Part shown: piece by piece, positions 2,630 to 30,221 of the stretch
How the letters are laid out: each line of letters begins with the position of its first letter
Numbering within the stretch: the first letter of the stretch is position 1
Source of the DNA: Eubacteriales bacterium
GTDB taxonomy: Bacteria; Bacillota; Clostridia; Oscillospirales; CAG-382
Assembly (NCBI GenBank): GCA_028702135.1
Contig: JAQVPJ010000001.1
Location: forward strand, 94,334-158,333
Direction: 5' to 3'
Length of the DNA: 64,000 nt
Notes under the pieces: generated by a model
Databases searched by the model: none
The model's input: only the letters and a program-made list of their open reading frames with translations
Told to the model about the DNA's origin: nothing
Translations under genes and position numbers: made by a program

Positions 2630-3598
2630 TTATTTTGCACCTCTCTTTTTCTTTTCGGTTCCCTTTTTCTCCTTGTTGATAAGTCTTATAAAAATGTCCT
2701 CAAGGTTAAGTTCCATACCCTCAAGCCCGACAAGAGGCCATCCGTTTTTGGATAGGTTATAGAACAGGGTTTTTCTGATATCTATCTTATCCTCCGACTC
2801 TATCATATAACTGATACTGTCGGTATCGCGTCTGCCGAGAGATTCTACATATCTTATCCCGCTTGTGGATTTCAGCATTTTGAGAACATCCGCCTCAGGC
2901 CCGACTATCTTTGCCATCAGCTTTCTCGATCCGTCGACAGCCAGAATCAAATCTTCTGTTTTCTCATTGGCAACCAGCTTGCCCTGGTTTATGACCACTA
3001 TCCTGTCACACACTGCCTGAACCTCAGGGAGTATGTGTGTCGAAAGGATTACGGTATGCTCCTTGCCGAGCATTTTTATAAGGTTCCTGATCTCAATTAT
3101 CTGCCTCGGATCAAGTCCGATCGTAGGCTCGTCGAAAATAAGCACCTTTGGATTTCCTATCAGTGCCTGTGCAATGCCAACCCTTTGTCTGTACCCCTTT
3201 GAGAGATTCTTTATAATACGATTGTAAACATCGTCAATTTTTACAACCTCACAGATCTCCCTGAGATGCGGCTCTTTGGGGAACCTGCATTCCTTAAGGT
3301 CATAAATAAAGCCAAGAAATTCTTTGACCGTCATTTCCGGGTACAAGGGCGGTATTTCGGGCAAAAAGCCTATTCTTCTTTTAGCCTCTATCGGATTTTC
3401 CAGAATATCTATCCCATCGATTTTCGCAGTTCCTGTCGTCGCTGACAAATAACCCGTGATAATATTCATCGTGGTCGATTTGCCGGCTCCGTTAGGTCCT
3501 AAAAATCCTAAAATTTCACCCTCGATTACATTAAACGAAAGGTCCTCAACCGCTTTTTTATTGCCGAAACTCTTTGATACATTTAAAATCTCAATCAT
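2630..3598 (-). CDS. ABC transporter ATP-binding protein (GldA-like)
   Basis: Walker A GPNGAGKST, signature LSKGYRQR, Walker B LIFDEP. The start overlaps the aspS stop by 8 nt. Confidence 0.9.
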   Translation of the reverse strand: MIEILNVSKSFGNKKAVEDLSFNVIEGEILGFLGPNGAGKSTTMNIITGYLSATTGTAKIDGIDILENPIEAKRRIGFLPEIPPLYPEMTVKEFLGFIYDLKECRFPKEPHLREICEVVKIDDVYNRIIKNLSKGYRQRVGIAQALIGNPKVLIFDEPTIGLDPRQIIEIRNLIKMLGKEHTVILSTHILPEVQAVCDRIVVINQGKLVANEKTEDLILAVDGSRKLMAKIVGPEADVLKMLKSTSGIRYVESLGRRDTDSISYMIESEDKIDIRKTLFYNLSKNGWPLVGLEGMELNLEDIFIRLINKEKKGTEKKKRGAK

Positions 3599-15097: not shown

Positions 15098-16084
15098 TTA
15101 TCTATTTGGTTGTCTTCTTTCTGGGTGTATTAACCAAAAAATCAAAGCTGTCACACATCCTGACGTTATGATTATCAATATGTTAATCGGAGCAACAATG
15201 ATTCCCGGTATACTTTCAAATAGGAATCCGGTGCCGAAACTATACAAATGCCCATGGAGAAGGATCATCTCACCAACATACATAAGGGTGGTCATTATTG
15301 CCGATACAATTGCCGAAATTCCTACTGTGACAAATTTACGCTTGCCGAGAAGGAAGGAACCGACATATATTCCAACCGTTACACCTAAAAGAATGAAAAA
15401 TATGGCCATAAGCGTAGCGGACAAGGGTGATACCTGAATGTTTCCGTCGCGCCAAAAAGCAGTGAAGCAAGCAAGAATGCACAATCCGAGGAAGACGAGA
15501 GATGATATCGATTGCAAAACGAGCGCTTTCAAACGCTTTTTATCACCGTTTCGTATCATCTGAGCAAATCCGTACAGACAGTTCAATACCGAAAGGATAA
15601 GGACAATAGAAATAATGTAGAAATGCAATTTAAAAGCAGGGTTATAGTTGCCCATTAATATATCAACTGGCGTTTGTGTCTTGTATGTAGTAACAGTTTT
15701 ACCCCATCCTTCGGGGGGAATATAACACATATACATTTGCCAATCTTCAAGTTTTGTAACCGTTTCCGCTGTTGTAACCACCACTTTTTTTTCAAACAGT
15801 GTTTCGAGAGCAAAGAAGGTACTGACGGCTAATGCCGATCCGCCGATTAATGCAAAACGCTTGAACAGTTTCATGCATAAGGGCAAGACTAATACGCCGA
15901 CAAGCAGCGCAACGGCAATCGGTGTATATGGGATGATGTACTTCGGGTAATTCTCTTTCATAACCGTACCGTCTGAAATCATATCCCAAACGACTCTCGT
16001 TCCCATATACAGCGGATAAAACGAAGCAATGAGGACGCCGTGGCATGTGAATAGATAATACCTGATAAAGCGCTTGTTTTTCAT
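15098..16084 (-). CDS. polytopic membrane protein of unknown function; last gene of the BlaI/BlaR1-like operon
   Basis: 328 aa, about 8 TM helices. It begins 12 nt after the M56 gene stop. Confidence 0.6.
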   Translation of the reverse strand: MKNKRFIRYYLFTCHGVLIASFYPLYMGTRVVWDMISDGTVMKENYPKYIIPYTPIAVALLVGVLVLPLCMKLFKRFALIGGSALAVSTFFALETLFEKKVVVTTAETVTKLEDWQMYMCYIPPEGWGKTVTTYKTQTPVDILMGNYNPAFKLHFYIISIVLILSVLNCLYGFAQMIRNGDKKRLKALVLQSISSLVFLGLCILACFTAFWRDGNIQVSPLSATLMAIFFILLGVTVGIYVGSFLLGKRKFVTVGISAIVSAIMTTLMYVGEMILLHGHLYSFGTGFLFESIPGIIVAPINILIIITSGCVTALIFWLIHPERRQPNR

Positions 16085-16096
16085 AACAGATTCCTT

Positions 16097-17020
16097 TCAT
16101 CCCGTATTTGTCAGTAGTACATAGAAGATTGTAGCAATCAATGTGAGAAACCCAAATAACGATAACCTTGTCATTTTTTTAAATGAGAGAATATTTTCAA
16201 CTCTAGTGCGGATTTTCGCTCCGCCGAACGACGATGCGAATATGCTCCGGCTGCTCGCGCTTTCGAGCAGTGTCCGTGCATAATCCTTTGCATTGTTTTT
16301 CCCGATTTTCAGAAGCACGCACTCATCGCAGGACAGCTCAATATCGGCAAGAAACGATTTAAGAAATATCCATGCTAATGGGTTGAACCAATGCACCGTG
16401 ACAATCAGAAACGCCATGATCCGCCACAGATTATCCGCTCGGTGGATGTGCATATTTTCGTGCATCAGGATAAATTCGACATCATCTCCGGCCATTCTCT
16501 CAGGCAAAATTATCTTTGGCTTAAATATTCCGTAGACTGCGGGCGATTGAATTTTATCTGAAAAATAAATGTTATCGTGAGATTTCCGTGCATCTTTCAG
16601 CTCGTGAAGCGTTGTAAAATACAGCACAGCAAGTGTTATAAGTATTGCCAAAAGCACCGTAATCCATATTGCAGAAGCAGTTTTGAAAACCTGTTCGAGG
16701 ATATTAACCTTATATGTAATTGGGAAATAACTTTTTGCCGCCGTAATGCTGTTCATCATTGAAAAGGCACTGTCGTCGGCGGGCTGATATACAACAACGG
16801 TTTTTGTAGTGATTTTTGACATCAGAGACATTAAGCTATAGGGACTGCTTAATCCAAACGGTATTATCATTCTGGAAAAAGGAATAATCCAAAATAATAC
16901 CGCGATTCTCCTGGGAATTTTCCGTATCATCCGTACCAGCATCACGATGGCTCCAGCAATTACAGCGGTTATGCTCATATTGAATATCCAGTAGAACACT
17001 TCATCCGGCATATCGTTCAC
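16097..17020 (-). CDS. M56-family (BlaR1/MecR1-like) membrane metalloprotease, short form without a sensor domain
   Basis: 307 aa. HEXXH as HENMH within LMHENMHIHRADNLWR, multiple TM helices. The start overlaps the blaI-like stop by 4 nt. Confidence 0.8.
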   Translation of the reverse strand: MNDMPDEVFYWIFNMSITAVIAGAIVMLVRMIRKIPRRIAVLFWIIPFSRMIIPFGLSSPYSLMSLMSKITTKTVVVYQPADDSAFSMMNSITAAKSYFPITYKVNILEQVFKTASAIWITVLLAILITLAVLYFTTLHELKDARKSHDNIYFSDKIQSPAVYGIFKPKIILPERMAGDDVEFILMHENMHIHRADNLWRIMAFLIVTVHWFNPLAWIFLKSFLADIELSCDECVLLKIGKNNAKDYARTLLESASSRSIFASSFGGAKIRTRVENILSFKKMTRLSLFGFLTLIATIFYVLLTNTG

Positions 17021-17373
17021 CTGCGTTCGATCAGCTTGCGTAGCTCGTCGATCTCACCATCAGACAATGACTCATCCTCAAGCAGAGCCGAAAACAGCGC
17101 TTTTCGCGATCCACCGAACATCTTTTTCAAAAGCGATTCCGCCTCGGTTTTACGGATTTCATCCTTCGAAACAAGCGCCGTGCAGATAAATCCGGGATCG
17201 TCTCGCCGGATAAATCCCTTTGCTTCAAGTTTTTTTAATACGGTATAGGTGGTATTCTTGTTCCATCCGATTGAATCCGCCGCAATCAGGCTGATCTCTT
17301 TTGCGGAGATCGGGCTGTTTTGCCAGATAATCTCCATTACCTTGATCTCGCTGTCAAAAATTTTTTCCTTCAC
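17017..17373 (-). CDS. BlaI/MecI/CopY-family transcriptional repressor
   Basis: 118 aa winged-helix protein: EIKVMEIIWQNSPISAKEI...TTYTVLKKLEAKGFI. GTG start with GGAGG 6 nt upstream. Confidence 0.85.
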   Translation of the reverse strand: MKEKIFDSEIKVMEIIWQNSPISAKEISLIAADSIGWNKNTTYTVLKKLEAKGFIRRDDPGFICTALVSKDEIRKTEAESLLKKMFGGSRKALFSALLEDESLSDGEIDELRKLIERR

Positions 17374-17405
17374 AAAAAACCTCCGCCGGACTATTACTGT
17401 AGTCT

Positions 17406-17434
17406 ATACTATCATAACAGTCTGTACTTGTCAA
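17406..17434 (-). promoter_or_regulatory. promoter of the blaI-like operon with overlapping TACAG/CTGTA-type repeats that may be an operator
   Basis: On the reverse strand: TTGACA (17434-17429), 17 nt, TAGTAT (17411-17406). The spacer and downstream region contain GTACAGACTGT and AGACTACAGTA. Confidence 0.5.
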
Positions 17435-17651
17435 TAGGTTTTAAAATAAAGAGGCGAGAAATATACTACGCTACTCTACTTTATGCATATATCTGTTCCG
17501 TATTGGCGATTTCTCTTCCCCGTTCAGCTATTGTCACAAACCGTTGTGGTTAAAATGTATGATAATGTTTACGGAACACGATTCTAAAAAAGGGCGACAA
17601 TATCTATGATGTGATGATAAGAGTAAACAGTAATTAAAGTTAATAAGTAAT

Positions 17652-17698
17652 TATAAACACTAAAGGACGGGTTTGATGACCATCCTTTAGTGTTTATA
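17652..17698. repeat. inverted repeat or hairpin, 16-bp perfect arms with a 15-nt loop
   Basis: TATAAACACTAAAGGA-cgggtttgatgacca-TCCTTTAGTGTTTATA. Confidence 0.9.
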
Positions 17699-17724
17699 CA
17701 AATAGATATGGAGGAGTTAAAGCA

Positions 17725-17830
17725 CTGTGTGAAAGTAATACGCATCTTCAACGGTATGTACGCCCGTGATCTATCCCGAAAGGTAAAAGCCGCTAAACGA
17801 CAGCTTGCTGAAAAAGCAGACTATGCCGAT
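17725..17830 (+). pseudogene. short fragment resembling the E-helix region of a large serine recombinase
   Basis: Part of track ORF 17690..18004. The segment IRIFNGMYARDLSRKVKAAKRQLAEKADY resembles the xxYARDxSxKxxxA motif of resolvase-type recombinases. No catalytic domain is present. Confidence 0.35.
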
Positions 17831-17871
17831 CAACAGCGAAGTAATGCAGGCAATCACCATTATTTGGCGGT

Positions 17872-18138
17872 TTATAGGATTTTGAGTAAAATATCAATAA
17901 TAAGAAAAACAGTTATAGCTATACTCAAAATATCAAAATGGAGATTGTTAATGCTCTTTGCTTTTTTGTCTTCTATTACTCCTGATTTAACCAGTGCAAT
18001 ATAACAGCCAAATAGTATTAACAGCGCAAAAAATATATTTAACCATGCAAAATCCTTAATAACAATCCATACTGCTGTTACTAAATATGTGATAATGAAT
18101 GTTAGTCTCACAACAGGATTCTTATTCAAAAAAATCAT
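17872..18138 (-). CDS. small 2-3 TM membrane protein, candidate immunity protein of the decayed toxin cassette
   Basis: 88 aa. RBS AGGTGA; the start lies 8 nt after the toxin-frame stop. Confidence 0.5.
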   Translation of the reverse strand: MIFLNKNPVVRLTFIITYLVTAVWIVIKDFAWLNIFFALLILFGCYIALVKSGVIEDKKAKSINNLHFDILSIAITVFLIIDILLKIL

Positions 18139-18146
18139 AAAATCAC

Positions 18147-18730
18147 CTAAAATCTTATATATCCGCTTTTACCATCACGATCTAAACAGTCAATGATCCA
18201 TGCAATACCATAACCAATTGAGAAATTGAGTACATTCCCAACCCAAGTTTGTATTCGTGCTAAAGTAAAAGCTCTCGTGGCCGCATTGGCAGCTTTCCCC
18301 ATAATTTTGTATAAAATTCTGTCCATAGAATTGAAAATCAGTTTGGATATTCCCTTTATTGCTTTTTCATATAATTCTTTAAACCATCGGGAAGTTTTTG
18401 CCCAAGTTACTAATTTCGTTGCTTTGAAAGCAGTAAAGATATACGGTAAAAAACTGTTATAAAGAAATCAAGCGCAACGCCTGACCAAAATGTACTAATG
18501 CTAATTGCCCAAAGTCCTGAAAGATCAATATTCATAACTGGATTGTTTACACAATACGCAAATAAATTTGAACCCAACAGTTCACCTTGAGCAAGCATTA
18601 AAACACTTGCATCATCCGCATTAATAAAGCGACCTATTTCCGGATCATAATATCTCTATTGTAACGAATAGAAGCCCGTCTCTACATCACAATAATACAT
18701 ACGATAACGGTAGGGGTTAAATTTACCGAC
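18147..18730 (-). pseudogene. orphan Rhs/YD-type core-end plus C-terminal toxin cassette, disrupted
   Basis: My reverse-strand translation reads GKFNPYRYRMYYCDVETGFYSLQ*RYYDPEIGRFINADD...NLFAYCVNNPVMNIDLSGL, the Rhs core-end DPxGL-type motif. There is an in-frame TAG at 18656-18658. The frame switches near 18410-18465 into ...WFKELYEKAIKGISKLIFNSMDRILYK...DRDGKSGYIRF*. Confidence 0.7.
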
Positions 18731-18751
18731 AGTCTTTGCAAGGGTTTTAGA

Positions 18752-18870
18752 GGTTGAAAGTAAATTTTTTCATACCGCAAATGAACATACTTTTACACGA
18801 ATATTATAAATTATTTTACATATATTGTCAAGCTGAATAATTCCTGTTGTTTTTGTAATATGTTACAATT
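18752..18870. repeat. copy A of a 119-bp dispersed promoter/leader repeat
   Basis: Ungapped manual alignment with 46024-46142 gives 98/119 identical positions. Confidence 0.85.
18803..18831 (-). promoter_or_regulatory. consensus sigma-A promoter inside repeat copy A
   Basis: On the reverse strand: TTGACA (18831-18826), 17 nt, TATAAT (18808-18803). Confidence 0.65.
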
Positions 18871-18926
18871 TTTCAGAATAGGTTATAACCAAACCGTTAT
18901 GTTGTGCTGAAAAAAGCAAAAAACAC

Positions 18927-18955
18927 TTGACAATTTATACAAATGTCATTATAAT
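18927..18955 (+). promoter_or_regulatory. consensus sigma-A promoter driving the long leader of the fusion-gene operon
   Basis: TTGACA 18927-18932, 17-nt spacer, TATAAT 18950-18955. Confidence 0.7.
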
Positions 18956-18961
18956 CGAACT

Positions 18962-19300
18962 ATCTTAAAAAAAGCATTGAAGGGGAATAAGCATTTGCAG
19001 TTTTGCGCTTTAAGAGAGTCGCCGGTCGGTGCGAGGCGATACGCAGGCATTTCGCGAGCTCGCCCCGGAGCTGTCCGCTGAACACAAGAATCGCATTTTG
19101 TTATGTGATTTGTTGCAAGTAGGCGAGAACGGGTTTCTCACCGTTATCAAAGAGGCGATGTTGACTGACATTGTAACATATGATAATACGACGATACCTT
19201 TTACGGCTCATATTATGCTTAGCAACTTTAAGTATATTTGAACCGGTTTTTTATACTTAATTCAAATTCCCGCTTTCGGTGGTTTTCACCCTCAAGGAAA
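18962..19300 (+). ncRNA. T-box-like 5' leader with a non-canonical 3' part
   Basis: AGAGA at 19013-19017. Helix GUCGCC/GGCGAU encloses GGUCGGUGCGA, which carries the distal-loop GGUGNRA motif. GAA-CAC-A at 19080-19086. AGUAGG at 19118-19123. F-box CCGUUA at 19141-19146. No GGGUGGNACCGCG and no GC-rich terminator were found. Confidence 0.5.
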
Positions 19301-19314
19301 GGTTGGTTATATTT

Positions 19315-21855
19315 ATGAAAATTGCTTTTTCCACATTGGCGTGTCCGGATTTCAGCTTTCCGGAGATATACTCAATGGCGACAGACCTCGGTTTTGACGG
19401 CATTGAGGTCAGAGGCCTGGGCCTTGATATTTTTGACGGAAGGACGCTCCCGTTCTCTGAAAATCAACTACCGCAAACAGTAAAGAAGCTGAAATCCCTG
19501 AATCTTGAGATATCCTGCCTTTCCTCCGGATGCTGCTTGAAATATGCAGATAAGGCGGAAACGAACATTTCCGAAATAAAGAAGTATATAAAGCTTGCAG
19601 GCGTGCTTGGAACTAAGTATATAAGGATTCTCGGCGACCTTAATCCCGCGCCTTCCGATGATGAACAGCCGGTGGACGATGATGTCGTTTATTCACAGCT
19701 CTCGGAGCTTATACCATTTGCGGAACAGAATAATGTAACCCTGCTTGTAGAAACGAACGGGGTTTACAGCGATACGGGACGCCTCAAGGAACTGCTTGAC
19801 CGTCTTAAAAGCGATTATGTCGGCGCGCTCTGGGATGTTCACCATCCTTACAGGTATAAAAACGAAACTCCCGAAAAAACTGTTCAGAATCTCGGTATGT
19901 ATATACGTTATGTGCATGTAAAAGACAGTGTTGTGGTTGACGGTAAGGTAAAATACCGCCTTATGGGCGAGGGCGACCTGCCTGTTTCCGAAATGATTGC
20001 AGCTTTGGCTTCAATTAATTATGTCGGCTATTTGTCGCTCGAATGGGTTAAAAGATGGGCTCCAGATCTTGAGGACGCCGGAATCGTTTTCCCACATTAT
20101 GTAAACTTTATGTCCAAATACACCGGCAAAGGACAATATTCGGGGACTCTCATAAGCAATATGAGGGGCGACGGAAAATATATATGGGAAAAGAACCTGC
20201 TTATCGACCTCACATTTCCTCAGGTACTTGACCGGGTATGCGAGGCTTTTCCGAATCAATATGCTTTCAGATATACCACCTGCGACTACACCCGTACTTA
20301 TGTACAGTTCCGCGACGATGTGGACCGCTTCGCACGCGCTTTGATTTCCATCGGTGTAAAAAGAGGGGATCATGTGGCAATCTGGGCGACAAACGTACCC
20401 GAATGGTTCATAACCTTTTGGGCGACTACAAAGATCGGTGCGGTTTTGGTTACGGTCAACACCGCTTATAAAATTTACGAAGCGGAATACCTTTTGCGCC
20501 AGTCCGATACCCATACCCTCGTTATGATAGACGGTTATAAGGACAGCGATTATGTTTCTATTATTAAAGAACTCTGCCCTGAGCTTGAAAATACAGAGCC
20601 GGGAAAACCTCTGTATTCAAAGCGTTTACCGTTTCTGCGCAATATAATTACCGTAACCAGCAAGCAAAAAGGATGCTTAACCTGGGATGAGGCGATGGAA
20701 TATGCCGAAAAAACCCCGATTGAGGAGGTTCACCGCAGGGCTGCTTCCATAGGTAAATTCGATGTCTGCAATATGCAGTATACCTCCGGAACTACCGGAT
20801 TTCCGAAGGGTGTTATGCTCACGCATTACAATGTAGTAAACAACGGCAAATCCATAGGCGATGGTATGGATTTAAGCACTGCCGACAGAATGATGATTCA
20901 GGTGCCGATGTTCCATTGCTTTGGAATGGTGCTTTCCATGACGGCGTGTATGACACACGGTACGACTATGTCGCCAATACCGTATTTCAGAACTAAGGAT
21001 TCGCTCGAATGTATAAACAAGGAAAAGATAACTGCGTTCAACGGTGTTCCAACAATGTTTATCGCAATGATGGAGCATGAGGATTTTGAAAAGACAGATT
21101 TTTCTCACATAAGGACCGGCATAATGGCAGGCTCTCCCTGCCCCGTCAAGGTAATGCAGGATGTTGTCGATAAGATGAATATGACTGAAATCACTATAGT
21201 TTACGGACAGACCGAATCCTCTCCCGGTGATACTATGAGCACAACTACCGACAGCGTAGAGGTTCGGGTAAACACAGTAGGAAAAGCGATGTTCGGGGTG
21301 GAGTGCAGGATAGTCGATCCCGAAACGGGGAAGGTTCTGCCCGACAACACAGACGGCGAGCTTGTTGCAAGAGGATATAATATTATGAAAGGCTATTATA
21401 AAATGCCCCAGGCAACGGCAAACGCAATCGATGCCGATGGCTGGCTCCACACCGGGGATCTTGCGCGCAGGGACGAAAACGGTTATTATAAGATTACCGG
21501 CAGGATAAAGGATATGATAATCCGCGGAGGCGAGAACATTTATCCAAAGGAGATAGAGGATTTTATATACACGCATCCAAAGGTAAGAGATGTTCAGGTT
21601 ATAGGCGTTCCCGACAAACAATACGGCGAGGAGATTATGGCCTGTGTCATTCTGAGGGAAGGACAGACGATGACAGAGGACGAACTCAAGGATTATGTCC
21701 GCACTCATATGGCAAAGCATAAAACTCCGCGTTATGTTGATTTTGTAGCCGAGTTCCCCATGAATGCGGCGGGTAAAATACTGAAGTATAAAATGCGTGA
21801 AAACGCCGTTGAAAAGTTAGGTTTGCAGACGGAGAGCAAAATAGTTACCGCTTAG
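19315..21855 (+). CDS. fusion protein: N-terminal sugar-phosphate isomerase/epimerase-type TIM barrel, C-terminal AMP-forming acyl-CoA ligase
   Basis: Track ORF starts at GTG 19279; I prefer ATG 19315 (MKIAFSTLACPDF). TIM-barrel motifs: LVETN, WDVHH, VHVKD, SLEW. Ligase motifs: YTSGTTGFPKGV, GWLHTGD, RGGENIYPKEIE, GKILK. Confidence 0.8.
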   Translation: MKIAFSTLACPDFSFPEIYSMATDLGFDGIEVRGLGLDIFDGRTLPFSENQLPQTVKKLKSLNLEISCLSSGCCLKYADKAETNISEIKKYIKLAGVLGTKYIRILGDLNPAPSDDEQPVDDDVVYSQLSELIPFAEQNNVTLLVETNGVYSDTGRLKELLDRLKSDYVGALWDVHHPYRYKNETPEKTVQNLGMYIRYVHVKDSVVVDGKVKYRLMGEGDLPVSEMIAALASINYVGYLSLEWVKRWAPDLEDAGIVFPHYVNFMSKYTGKGQYSGTLISNMRGDGKYIWEKNLLIDLTFPQVLDRVCEAFPNQYAFRYTTCDYTRTYVQFRDDVDRFARALISIGVKRGDHVAIWATNVPEWFITFWATTKIGAVLVTVNTAYKIYEAEYLLRQSDTHTLVMIDGYKDSDYVSIIKELCPELENTEPGKPLYSKRLPFLRNIITVTSKQKGCLTWDEAMEYAEKTPIEEVHRRAASIGKFDVCNMQYTSGTTGFPKGVMLTHYNVVNNGKSIGDGMDLSTADRMMIQVPMFHCFGMVLSMTACMTHGTTMSPIPYFRTKDSLECINKEKITAFNGVPTMFIAMMEHEDFEKTDFSHIRTGIMAGSPCPVKVMQDVVDKMNMTEITIVYGQTESSPGDTMSTTTDSVEVRVNTVGKAMFGVECRIVDPETGKVLPDNTDGELVARGYNIMKGYYKMPQATANAIDADGWLHTGDLARRDENGYYKITGRIKDMIIRGGENIYPKEIEDFIYTHPKVRDVQVIGVPDKQYGEEIMACVILREGQTMTEDELKDYVRTHMAKHKTPRYVDFVAEFPMNAAGKILKYKMRENAVEKLGLQTESKIVTA

Positions 21856-21915: not shown

Positions 21916-22848
21916 ATGAAGATTCTAATCATAAACGGGCCGAATTTGAACCTGCTCGGTCTGAGAGAACCTGCTGTTTACGGCAGCAGAACATATTCGG
22001 ATTTATGCACTTTCATCGGGGATGTGTGCGTAGAGCATAATATTGAGTATAAGCTGTTTCAATCTAACAGTGAGAGCGCTATTATTGATGAGATTCAAGC
22101 TGCATACGGCGTTTTTGACGGTATTGTCATCAATCCTGCGGCTTATACTCATACGAGTATCGCCATTCCCGACGCTATCAAAGCGGTTGGAGTTCCGGCG
22201 ATAGAGGTACATATTTCTAATATATACGAAAGAGAGGAGTACAGGCATCGGTCCTTTACCTCTCAGGCCTGTATCACAACGATCTATGGGCTTGGTTTCG
22301 ATGGTTACAAAAATGCGCTTATTTTACTGAAGGATTATTTGACAAAGGGCATAAAGCCCGAACAGGGAAAAGCGCCGGACGGCAGGAAAATTGCCGGATT
22401 TTTAAAAGTGAGCAGGCAGAATTACCAGCCTGCAGAGCATTACGGGGATATAAAGCTTCCGCTAAGAGCGACTGAAGGTTCCGCTGGTTATGATTTTTTC
22501 GCACCTTATGACATAGCGCTTGAACCGCACCAGACGGTTACTGTTCCCACGGGTATCCGTGCAAGGATAGACAAAGGCTGGGTGTTGATGATTTTTCCAC
22601 GCTCCGGGCTTGGATTCAAGTACCGTCTTATGCTTAACAATACAGTCGGCATAATTGATTCGGATTATTTTTATTCCGATAACGAAGGCCATATTTTTAT
22701 TCGTTTTACCAATGGTGACTCTCCTCTTTGCATAAGAAAAGGCGATGCTTTCGCTCAGGGTGTTTTCGTTCCGTATGGTATAACGTCGGATGACTGCACC
22801 GATGCGGTCCGCAACGGCGGCTTCGGGAGTACAGATATAAAAAAGTAA
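21916..22848 (+). CDS. fusion protein: type II 3-dehydroquinate dehydratase (N-terminal) and trimeric dUTPase (C-terminal)
   Basis: 310 aa. N-terminal part: MKILIINGPNLNLLGLREPAVYG, NPAAYTHTSIAIPDA, EVHISN. C-terminal part: AGYD, PRSG, GIIDSDY, KGDAFAQ, GGFGST. Confidence 0.8.
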   Translation: MKILIINGPNLNLLGLREPAVYGSRTYSDLCTFIGDVCVEHNIEYKLFQSNSESAIIDEIQAAYGVFDGIVINPAAYTHTSIAIPDAIKAVGVPAIEVHISNIYEREEYRHRSFTSQACITTIYGLGFDGYKNALILLKDYLTKGIKPEQGKAPDGRKIAGFLKVSRQNYQPAEHYGDIKLPLRATEGSAGYDFFAPYDIALEPHQTVTVPTGIRARIDKGWVLMIFPRSGLGFKYRLMLNNTVGIIDSDYFYSDNEGHIFIRFTNGDSPLCIRKGDAFAQGVFVPYGITSDDCTDAVRNGGFGSTDIKK

Positions 22849-22861
22849 ACGCTTACTATTA

Positions 22862-22891
22862 AAAAACGTCTGCTCGTTTGCAGACGTTTTT
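22862..22891. terminator. bidirectional rho-independent terminator
   Basis: AAAAACGTCTGC-tcgttt-GCAGACGTTTTT. Confidence 0.8.
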
Positions 22892-28739: not shown

Positions 28740-30221
28740 ATGAAAAAAAGACTTTTGTTTATAGCACATATAGCGGTCTGGTTATTGGGAACTGCTTTTT
28801 TGATGGTCGGAATGTTTCACAATAATGTTTGGTTTGATGAGAGCTATTCGGTTGGTATCGTCAATCACAATCTGTTTGATGTTTGCATAATCAGCGCTGC
28901 GGATGTGCACCCTCCGTTTTATTACATAGTACTAAAGCTGTATTCCTTGCTTTTTGGAAACAGTATCACATCATTGCGTTCGTTTTCAGTTTTATGTGCT
29001 TCTTTATTGGCTGGGTTAGGCATAACACACATACGGAAAGACTTTGGTGAAAAAGTCGGTTTCTGGTATACCACGCTGACATTTTTGTTTTGTTCCACTT
29101 TTAAATATGCTAATGAAATAAGAATGTATACGCTGGCACCTTTGCTTGTTACGCTTATGTGTATTTACGCATATCGTTTTTATAAGTCGGGATTGACAGA
29201 TAAAAAAAACAGGATTTTATTTTTAGTATTCTCGATTCTGGGGGCTTACACACATTACTATGCACTCGCTGCCGCCGGTGCGGTAACCTTTTTGTTCCTC
29301 CTATATTGCAGGAAGAATGACCTGATGACTTTGTGGAAAAAGTTAGCCAAAATGCAAATGTTATTTTATATTCCCGGTTTTATATGTCTGTTTGCACAAT
29401 CCTTACATGTTGTAAGCTCTTTTTGGATAACGATGTTATATCCGGAATTTATATATAAATCGCTGTCTTTCTTTTTGATAGGCGATGTTCCGGGTGATGC
29501 GGTAAACCTTACGAAAATTACTGCTACAATTTATGATGCGATAGCCGTAGTAATATGGGGTGTGTGTGCATTTTTCGTTGTATCGGATTATAGAAAAAAT
29601 CGAGATAAAAACACAACGGTGCTACTTGTTCTCAAGGTTATCGGTCTTGTTATCGGCTTCTTCCTTGCAGTATCGCTAATACGTCCCCTCTATTATGTTC
29701 GGTATCTGACTGTTTTGTCCGGACTTGTTGTACTTTTCTTTGCTTTCGCGTTGGAAAAAATCAATAAGCCTTTTGTCAAGCCCGCTTTAATTCTTTTATT
29801 GGTTGTTGTTCTTATTTTAAGAGTTGTTCCTTTATATAAGGTAATGTATGCGTCTAATAACGATAATTTAAACGCTTTTATGACCGAGAATGTAAAAGAC
29901 GGGGATATCATCATAAGCGAAAATGTTTTAATTCTGACAGTAATTTCCGTAAAATATCCTAATGTGAAAATGTATTTCTACAACAGCGAGGATTGGCATG
30001 TAAAGACAGCCTATAAAGCTTATATGCCGGGCATGGAAACCATTACCGAGCTGTCGGAGGTCGATGAAACCGATAGAAGAATCTGGGTTTTAAATAATGA
30101 TCACGATGCTTCGGTATGCGATGAGATCTCTGCAAACACTGACAAGGAAATAACTATGATTTACCCTAAATTCGTTGTTCCATATCATAATATTGAATTT
30201 ACTTTTACCCTTATGGAATAG
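28740..30221 (+). CDS. GT-C-fold membrane glycosyltransferase-like protein, paralog 2
   Basis: Track ORF starts at 28665. The ATG at 28740 (MKKRLLFIAHI) aligns with the paralog 1 start and has AAAGGA upstream. About two-thirds identical to paralog 1 over the N-terminal half, by eye. Confidence 0.6.
   Translation: MKKRLLFIAHIAVWLLGTAFLMVGMFHNNVWFDESYSVGIVNHNLFDVCIISAADVHPPFYYIVLKLYSLLFGNSITSLRSFSVLCASLLAGLGITHIRKDFGEKVGFWYTTLTFLFCSTFKYANEIRMYTLAPLLVTLMCIYAYRFYKSGLTDKKNRILFLVFSILGAYTHYYALAAAGAVTFLFLLYCRKNDLMTLWKKLAKMQMLFYIPGFICLFAQSLHVVSSFWITMLYPEFIYKSLSFFLIGDVPGDAVNLTKITATIYDAIAVVIWGVCAFFVVSDYRKNRDKNTTVLLVLKVIGLVIGFFLAVSLIRPLYYVRYLTVLSGLVVLFFAFALEKINKPFVKPALILLLVVVLILRVVPLYKVMYASNNDNLNAFMTENVKDGDIIISENVLILTVISVKYPNVKMYFYNSEDWHVKTAYKAYMPGMETITELSEVDETDRRIWVLNNDHDASVCDEISANTDKEITMIYPKFVVPYHNIEFTFTLME

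Follow-up and report, generated by a model that had tools for sequence, protein, structure and literature searches.

The window analysed here is a stretch of 64,000 nucleotides (nt) from an Eubacteriales bacterium (contig JAQVPJ010000001.1), in which a plus-strand gene encodes an 846-amino-acid fusion of a TIM barrel and an AMP-forming acyl-CoA ligase and is preceded by a leader of ~350 nt. T-box riboswitches read tRNA twice, with Stem I reading the anticodon and the T-box bulge reading the free 3' end, and the UGGN of this bulge pairs with the NCCA-3' end of the tRNA inside an antiterminator. Judged by its sequence, the leader of the fusion gene is a genuine, leucine-type relative of the T-box riboswitches, and it has no T-box sequence. 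Its features are as follows, where loci with an L number belong to the comparison set described below.

18927..18955, plus strand: sigma-70-type promoter TTGACA-17-TATAAT, agreeing with the consensus at 12/12 positions, with a similarly placed promoter in L081 and L161
18970..19073, plus strand: T-box Stem I (RF00230 alignment; Stem I model R1, 86.5 bits, E 3.5e-24)
UGA 18978-80 / GGAG 19067-70, plus strand: K-turn of Stem I (RF00230 alignment)
19013-17, plus strand: AG bay AGAGA of Stem I (RF00230 alignment)
19018-23/19035-40, plus strand: distal helix of Stem I, with the loop GGUCGGUGCGA that holds GGUGCGA at 19028-34 (RF00230 alignment)
19059..19062, plus strand: Specifier codon CUC (Leu) and the conserved purine G 3' of it (RF00230 and R1 alignments)
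19074..19128, plus strand: Stem II with S-turn, GAA at 19080-82 and AGUA at 19118-21 (RF00230 alignment; region conserved in L081 and L082)
19090-19109, plus strand: hairpin extending Stem II at its apex
19129..19154, plus strand: Stem IIA hairpin, F-box CCGUUA (19141-46) and IIB 3' strand AGAG (19151-54) (RF00230 alignment)
19155..19174, plus strand: Stem III (RF00230 alignment; predicted in all clade members)
19143..19187, plus strand: clade-specific helix P-F, GUUAUCA 19143-49 : UGAUAAU 19181-87, which encloses the IIB strand and Stem III
19204..19252, plus strand: intrinsic-terminator-like hairpin (19204-19245), then G and UUUUUU (19247-52) (fold energy against shuffles; kept in the clade)
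19261..19292, plus strand: window-specific insertion with GGUGG (19278-82) and a small GGUG/CACC hairpin (a gap in L081, L082 and L001)
19294..19317, plus strand: Shine-Dalgarno sequence (SD) AAGGAAAGG at 19294-19302 and start codon ATG at 19315-17 (sequence and translation)
19315..21855, plus strand: fusion gene, with the TIM barrel at residues 22-248 and the ligase at residues 306-821 (Pfam PF01261, PF00501, PF13193)

A permissive Rfam scan of 18800-19450 returned a single strong match, the T-box family RF00230, which covers 18968-19188 and model positions 1-219 with 67.9 bits (E=1.4e-14). The alignment is good throughout Stem I, Stem II, the IIA/F-box element and Stem III, and within Stem I the K-turn, the Specifier loop, the AG bay and the distal-loop platform are present. 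The score none the less lies under the RF00230 gathering score of 93 bits because 26 antiterminator positions, including UGGNACC, are replaced by three nucleotides, and at Rfam curated thresholds no family matched anywhere in the 64-kb window; automatic pipelines miss such leaders since they score below the Rfam threshold. A preliminary description, made from the letters of the window, had noted the promoter and a series of T-box-like landmarks, and its positions for AGAGA (19013-17), the GUCGCC/GGCGAU helix, GGUGCGA (19028-34), GAACACA (19080-86), AGUAGG (19118-23), CCGUUA (19141-46) and GGUGG (19278-82), like its 12/12 promoter, are correct. The covariance-model search that it had proposed gave the significant match just described, and its central observation, a T-box-family leader ahead of a gene that is not an aminoacyl-tRNA synthetase, is supported by this match together with the identity of the gene. 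Its third option, that the leader is a mere look-alike, is excluded, as the resemblance to RF00230 and to the Stem I model R1 goes far beyond chance.

The same description had read GAA-CAC-A (19080-86) as a Specifier loop with a histidine codon, or possibly an asparagine or threonine codon in the same string. That string does exist, but the covariance model places it inside Stem II, with CAC (19083-85) in the loop of the S-turn, and the segment that follows GAA is variable or missing in relatives. The true Specifier position is occupied by CUC (19059-61), flanked in the 3' side of the Specifier loop as GAG-CUC-G and followed by the CCCC strand of the lower helix and then the K-turn GGAG, and this CUC is invariant in 13 leaders of the clade to which the window belongs. 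Canonical T-boxes ahead of orthologous genes furthermore carry UGGU, as opposed to the UGGG expected for C73 of tRNA-His; the U of UGGU fits an A73 discriminator, as expected for tRNA-Leu. By alignment the Specifier of the leader is therefore leucine and not histidine; the model alignment and the comparison with relatives rule out His, Asn and Thr in GAACACA, and a His-specific T-box can practically be dismissed, also by the description's own test, which made the assignment depend on where folding places CAC. CUC is the commonest leucine specifier, found in 74% of the Leu T-boxes in TBDB (PMC7778990).

Relatives of the fusion protein are encoded at no fewer than 586 places in the genome collection and are widespread in Clostridia. 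We compared the window with 160 of these loci, 80 from genomes and 80 from metagenomes, in 129 of which the protein is ~843 amino acids long, a size that is very uniform across Clostridia. Among 17 loci tested with Rfam, seven have a complete T-box directly upstream of the gene with 96-120 bits, above the gathering score, and the canonical ortholog alignments shown have a GAA/GGA-CUC-R Specifier loop and the T-box GUGGUACC / GUGGUACCGCG. A Stem I covariance model, R1, built from 28 leaders, found 101 Stem I matches in the 160 loci and the window, of which 100 immediately precede the gene, and wherever the Specifier could be read among these it was CUC or, in a few cases, the synonymous CUG. 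Approximately 89 of the Stem I leaders carry GAGUGGUACC(G/A)CG. The fusion gene family is thus a conserved and widespread member of the Leu T-box regulon in Clostridia, because most orthologous leaders combine a CUC/CUG Stem I with GAGUGGUACC. In the literature searched, no description of the fusion gene as a member of this regulon was found. The earlier suggestion of a new T-box regulon member therefore holds for the gene family as a whole, with its canonical Leu T-boxes.

Across the 28 sequences Stem I covaries strongly: 95% of the alignment cells are paired and 13 pairs have changed on both sides, a result reached by 0/500 shuffles. Within the clade that lacks the T-box the corresponding values are 97.7% of cells paired and 10/19 pairs changed on both sides, again with 0/500 shuffles reaching the observed value, in an alignment that was fitted to the model and includes as an extra row a second T-box of L118. 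This second, Leu-type Stem I lies just downstream of the fusion gene in L118 (5610-5715; R1 70 bits; RF00230 37.9 bits, truncated) and is cut by the contig end.

At least 13 distinct leaders combine a Stem I with the lack of any UGGNACC ahead of the start codon, namely those of the window, L081, L082 (identical to L083 and L149), L161, L011, L021, L023, L167, L063, L064, L073, L118 and L164. L166 is near-identical to L073, and L165 belongs to the same clade, with its Stem I cut by the contig end. A second protein search added five further relatives (P0001, P0003, P0019, P0106 and P0125), a number too small to make covariation decisive. When the N-terminal domain was placed in a neighbour-joining tree, the T-box-less leaders formed a single clade with L001 and L091, and the architecture, which is not private to the window, is by this tree shared through common ancestry in one monophyletic group. 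RF00230 gave 40-81 bits for the seven other clade leaders tested, with the antiterminator positions deleted in the alignments shown. Within the clade, proteins are as little as 59% identical to that of the window, a distance at which non-coding DNA free of constraint could no longer be aligned, and still the 13 leaders show little or no change in AGAGAG, the distal loop, AAGC, GA-CUC-R-CC and GAGCU. Conservation is highest at loop nucleotides that have no known role other than contact with tRNA. In L081 (1250-1341) and L091 (1086-1177) a tRNA-Ser(GGA) gene lies upstream of the locus, a shared synteny unrelated to the Leu specifier.

Conservation continues 3' of Stem I. The Stem II S-turn, the IIA/B element with its F-box CCGUUA and Stem III occupy model positions 103-182 and are conserved in the clade, throughout which ACGGGUUUCUCACCGUUAUCA is near-invariant; read by eye, a pairing of the IIA loop with GAGA co-varies in L009 (UCCC/GGGA). 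Immediately 3' of Stem III lies a UGAUAAU box whose partner is the F-box tail GUUAUCA. The resulting P-F helix is predicted in 12/14 clade leaders, with changes in both partners in L063/L064 (CGUGAUC/GGUUACG), L165 and L118 (GUUAAC/GUUGAC), and is not found in canonical orthologs, in which AGAGUGGUACC takes its place. A short U/C-rich linker separates the helix from the terminator hairpin. A UGG that occurs in the Stem III loop of L011, L021, L023, L063/64/73 and L118, partly within the stem, was considered as an acceptor site that had moved. The base that follows is C, G or A, not U, and the motif is missing in the window, L081 and L082, so in our reading this candidate is rejected.

The statement in the preliminary description that no 14-nt T-box could be found is confirmed. 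No UGGNACC occurs in the leader, the nearest TGGNACC of the window being ~10 kb away at 29134, and a hidden T-box further downstream or elsewhere was looked for and not found. Neither the leader nor any clade member has a T-box with a UGGN bulge in an antiterminator; gone from the clade are the AGAG strand, the UGGUACC bulge and the A2 hairpin, which make up the antiterminator's 5' half, together with an extra hairpin and a second AG box. Compared with the Leu class of RF00230 (leuS and ilv-leu type), the window shares the promoter-proximal leader, a full Stem I, CUC with its purine, the Stem II S-turn, the IIA/B pseudoknot with F-box, Stem III and an intrinsic terminator. It differs in having no T-box sequence, UGGN bulge, A1 5' strand or A2 hairpin, no second AG box and no extra hairpin between the F-box and Stem III, and in having a new helix, GUUAUCA:UGAUAAU, that closes the Stem III region. 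The closest comparison is with the canonical Leu T-boxes of the same gene family (L024, L010, L003 and L163), which precede the same gene and have the same Specifier and the same Stem I-IIA/B sequence family. Canonical leaders of the family contain AGAGUGGUACC(G/A)CGGAAG...GCUUUCGUCUCU and pass the Rfam threshold, neither of which applies to the clade of the window; the 3' boxes of this clade, GGCUCUGU..UAUGC, correspond by homology to CGUCUCUUGCAGAAAUGC in the 3' half of canonical leaders.

The terminator is retained. In the preliminary description no terminator was recognised, which proved to be wrong, as an AU-rich and imperfect hairpin at 19204-19245 is followed by six U residues and is conserved in relatives; a simple terminator scan missed 19204-19252 because it requires short GC-rich stems. 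The hairpin has a folding energy of -12.5 kcal/mol (z -3.39), with 1/200 shuffles as stable, and its 5' strand contains the conserved boxes CGGCUC and UAUGCUU. A hairpin with a U-run, of -12 to -25 kcal/mol, occupies the same place in the clade leaders, those of L021, L063 and L064 (which an automatic U-run search had misplaced) and of L165 and L167 having been identified by eye. By homology, the terminator region of the window corresponds to CGUCUCUUGCAGAAAUGC, the 3' half of the antiterminator/terminator in canonical leaders.

A switch would need an alternative partner for the terminator, and we folded transcripts truncated before the terminator 3' strand and scanned the leader for partners of the 5' strand. 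The most recurrent partner was the 3' basal strand of Stem I, including the K-turn, which can form 8 bp in L081, L082 and L161 (CGGAGCUG:CGGCUCUG), 12 bp in L063/64/73 (CACC-ACAGAGCU:AGCUCUGU-C-GGUG), 9 bp in L118 (UGAGCUGUC:GACAGUUUA) and 6 bp in the window (GAGCUG 19068-73 : CGGCUC 19204-09). By eye, the UAUGCUU(UU) box can also pair with the 5' AAAAGCAU at the base of Stem I, in two sub-groups with shifted registers, and this pairing is missing in the L063 and L118 groups. Such alternative pairings lie 0-8 kcal/mol from the terminator state and are the minimum free energy (MFE) structure in L081 and L023. The UGAUAAU box or the linker, tried as an antiterminator, gave 6 bp in the window, 8 bp in L001 and weak pairing elsewhere, and was rejected as a general mechanism. 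The terminator is conserved; leader folding and the partner scan revealed no consistently supported antiterminator-like helix, and pairing between the Stem I base and the terminator 5' strand, attractive in L063/64/73, L081, L082, L161 and L118, is put forward as a hypothesis only.

The insertion next to the SD had been singled out in the preliminary description as a possible translational platform. On such a model, GGUGGU (19278-83) would be the tRNA acceptor site and an anti-sequestrator would free the SD AAGGAAAGG; UGGU would fit the A73 discriminator expected for tRNA-Leu, and CUUUC (19273-77) is able to pair with GAAAG of the SD. However, the stretch at ~19261-19292 is an insertion missing from L081, L082, L001 and the rest of the clade, it lies downstream of the conserved terminator, its UGG is buried in the GGUG/CACC stem with no bulge, and this hairpin (-7.7 kcal/mol) is less stable than shuffled sequence (z +1.33). 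Translational control through this insertion is thus unsupported and we regard it as very improbable; the GGUGG by the SD lies outside the conserved element and is no T-box. Actinobacterial translational T-boxes of the ileS type offer a precedent for a non-canonical expression platform, and they keep the bulge in an anti-sequestrator and have a shortened Stem I (PMC7778990, PMC11297988). The window differs from them in its full-length Stem I, its terminator and its SD-proximal GGUGG, which is not conserved, and it has no conserved bulge in an anti-sequestrator. Within the insertion, 19266-19277 is partly complementary to the 5' side of Stem I at 18980-18989 (AUUCCCGCUUUC vs GAAGGGGAAU) and is paired with it in the MFE fold of the whole leader, a pairing for which no comparative support was found.

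The conserved loops, the covariation of Stem I and the retained terminator together favour a transcription attenuator that binds tRNA-Leu and has a non-canonical read-out, a working interpretation to which we assign a probability of about 0.55. The half that reads the anticodon (Stem I, the Stem II S-turn, the IIA/B pseudoknot with F-box, and Stem III) has been kept whole, and the 5' half of the antiterminator with its UGGN bulge has been deleted, with the helix of the F-box tail and UGAUAAU in its place. In the favoured model the leader would still bind tRNA-Leu(GAG) and attenuate transcription of the fusion gene and, in the window, of the downstream aroQ-dut gene. The terminator at 19204-19252 would be the default state, and read-through would be set by alternative pairing of its 5' strand, with the two strands that form the base of Stem I as the leading candidates (GAGCUG 19068-73:CGGCUC 19204-09 and AAGCAU 18973-78:AUGCUU 19215-20). 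We infer continued tRNA binding and conditional termination; a terminator that always acted would be hard to reconcile with a protein that is intact (~843 amino acids) in nearly all loci. More tentative, and rather doubtful as it stands, is the proposal that the charge-sensing module has been dispensed with and the module reading anticodon and elbow coupled to the terminator through a new read-out, which might be tRNA-Leu occupancy, acting by competition between the Stem I base and the terminator 5' strand, or a partner not yet seen.

Several observations weigh against an attenuator that still responds to tRNA, and most of them would be expected of a slowly decaying relic, in which tRNA control was lost after the bulge had been deleted in the ancestor of the clade, Stem I-III persist by inertia or because they serve some general purpose, for instance in stabilising the 5' end, the hairpin attenuates constitutively and leakily, and the gene has come under other regulation or none. 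The feature that defines a T-box is missing: no UGG occurs between Stem III and the U-run, and with it the only known route for discriminating charged from uncharged tRNA is gone. No consistent antiterminator was found, and the pairing at the Stem I base is weak in the window, L011, L021 and L023, with shuffle p values of 0.11 in the window, 0.04-0.5 in most others and <=0.002 only in L063/64/73; the AG bay and the IIB strand, which likewise contain GAG, are competing partners. That pairing would moreover cause termination on tRNA binding, a response of opposite sign to that of the canonical orthologs. The terminator of the window is modest, AU-rich and imperfect, and its CUCUG box is mutated to CUCAU. 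Lastly, L001 (77% protein identity) has lost Stem I-III and kept the hairpin, linker and terminator behind a new promoter, and L091 has no leader and a short 5' untranslated region (2840-3000) where L167, with a 95% identical protein, has the full leader (1240-1500); these losses imply that the element is dispensable, and the differing upstream regions at 95% protein identity place the loss in L091 very recently.

Against decay stands the age of the change, since the loss of the T-box was old and single, and yet the tRNA-contact loops (CUC with its purine, AGAGAG, the distal loop and the S-turn GAA/AGUA) are the best-conserved parts at ~59-63% protein identity, and compensatory changes in the stems have arisen within the clade. 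A purely structural role would preserve helices and allow the loops to drift. We consider the decaying relic the main rival and the less likely of the two readings, and as between the decaying T-box and the non-canonical platform of the preliminary description, conservation across the clade favours a variant that is still functional. The leader is accordingly not filed as a T-box riboswitch, whose defining feature it fails to show, but as a clade-wide variant derived from T-boxes. What is striking in it is that the clade seems to have kept the anticodon reader under purifying selection long after deleting the reader of the 3' end, which would make it either a natural experiment in riboswitch decay or a new coupling of tRNA binding to termination. 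Were the proposal of a new read-out in place of charge sensing correct, this lineage would be the first class of T-boxes able to work in the absence of a T-box sequence; nothing specific on T-boxes of this kind was found in the literature searched.

The xylose-isomerase-like TIM barrel is N-terminal in the fusion protein and the ligase C-terminal. The best NCBIfam match, PRK12583 (fatty acid CoA ligase family), reached 712 bits, below its cutoff of 832, and solved structures gave only distant and uninformative matches for the TIM-barrel domain. Leu T-box regulation is a strong functional clue to an uncharacterised protein of 843 amino acids, and we speculate that it may activate a branched-chain acid, for example isovalerate, for leucine supply; nothing specific on isovalerate-to-leucine ligases was found in the literature searched. 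In L161 (1944-4478) and L163 (1559-4091) the fusion is called as two open reading frames (ORFs) of 382 and 443 or 470 amino acids, reflecting a frameshift or an assembly error. Downstream of the fusion gene the likely operon of the window continues with two further features.

21916..22848, plus strand: aroQ-dut, a single ORF fusing AroQ (type II 3-dehydroquinase) to dUTPase (protein-family matches), second gene of the likely operon
22862-22891: operon terminator, after the second gene

No terminator was found between the fusion gene and aroQ-dut. The genes downstream of the fusion vary among loci, and linkage to aroQ-dut occurs only in the nearest relatives of the window (L081, L001, L082/83/149 and L161). 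The next gene after aroQ-dut encodes SpoIIE, which indicates a spore-forming member of Clostridia. There are no tRNA genes in the window.

Upstream of the leader, a second perfect 12/12 sigma-70 promoter lies on the minus strand at 18803-18831, divergent from the leader promoter and ~100 bp from it. Between the two promoters, AATTTTTCAGAATA at 18867-18880 bears what we take to be a loose resemblance to a CodY box; CodY is a repressor that responds to branched-chain amino acids. In the direction of the minus-strand promoter, the 1.4 kb at 17400-18800 contain only short ORFs of <105 amino acids on both strands, and these are possibly degraded genes. Beyond them, the minus strand at 15098-17373 holds a BlaI/BlaR1-like pair, formed by a penicillinase repressor (17017-17373) and an M56 peptidase (16097-17020), and after this pair an ORF of 328 amino acids that has no Pfam match.

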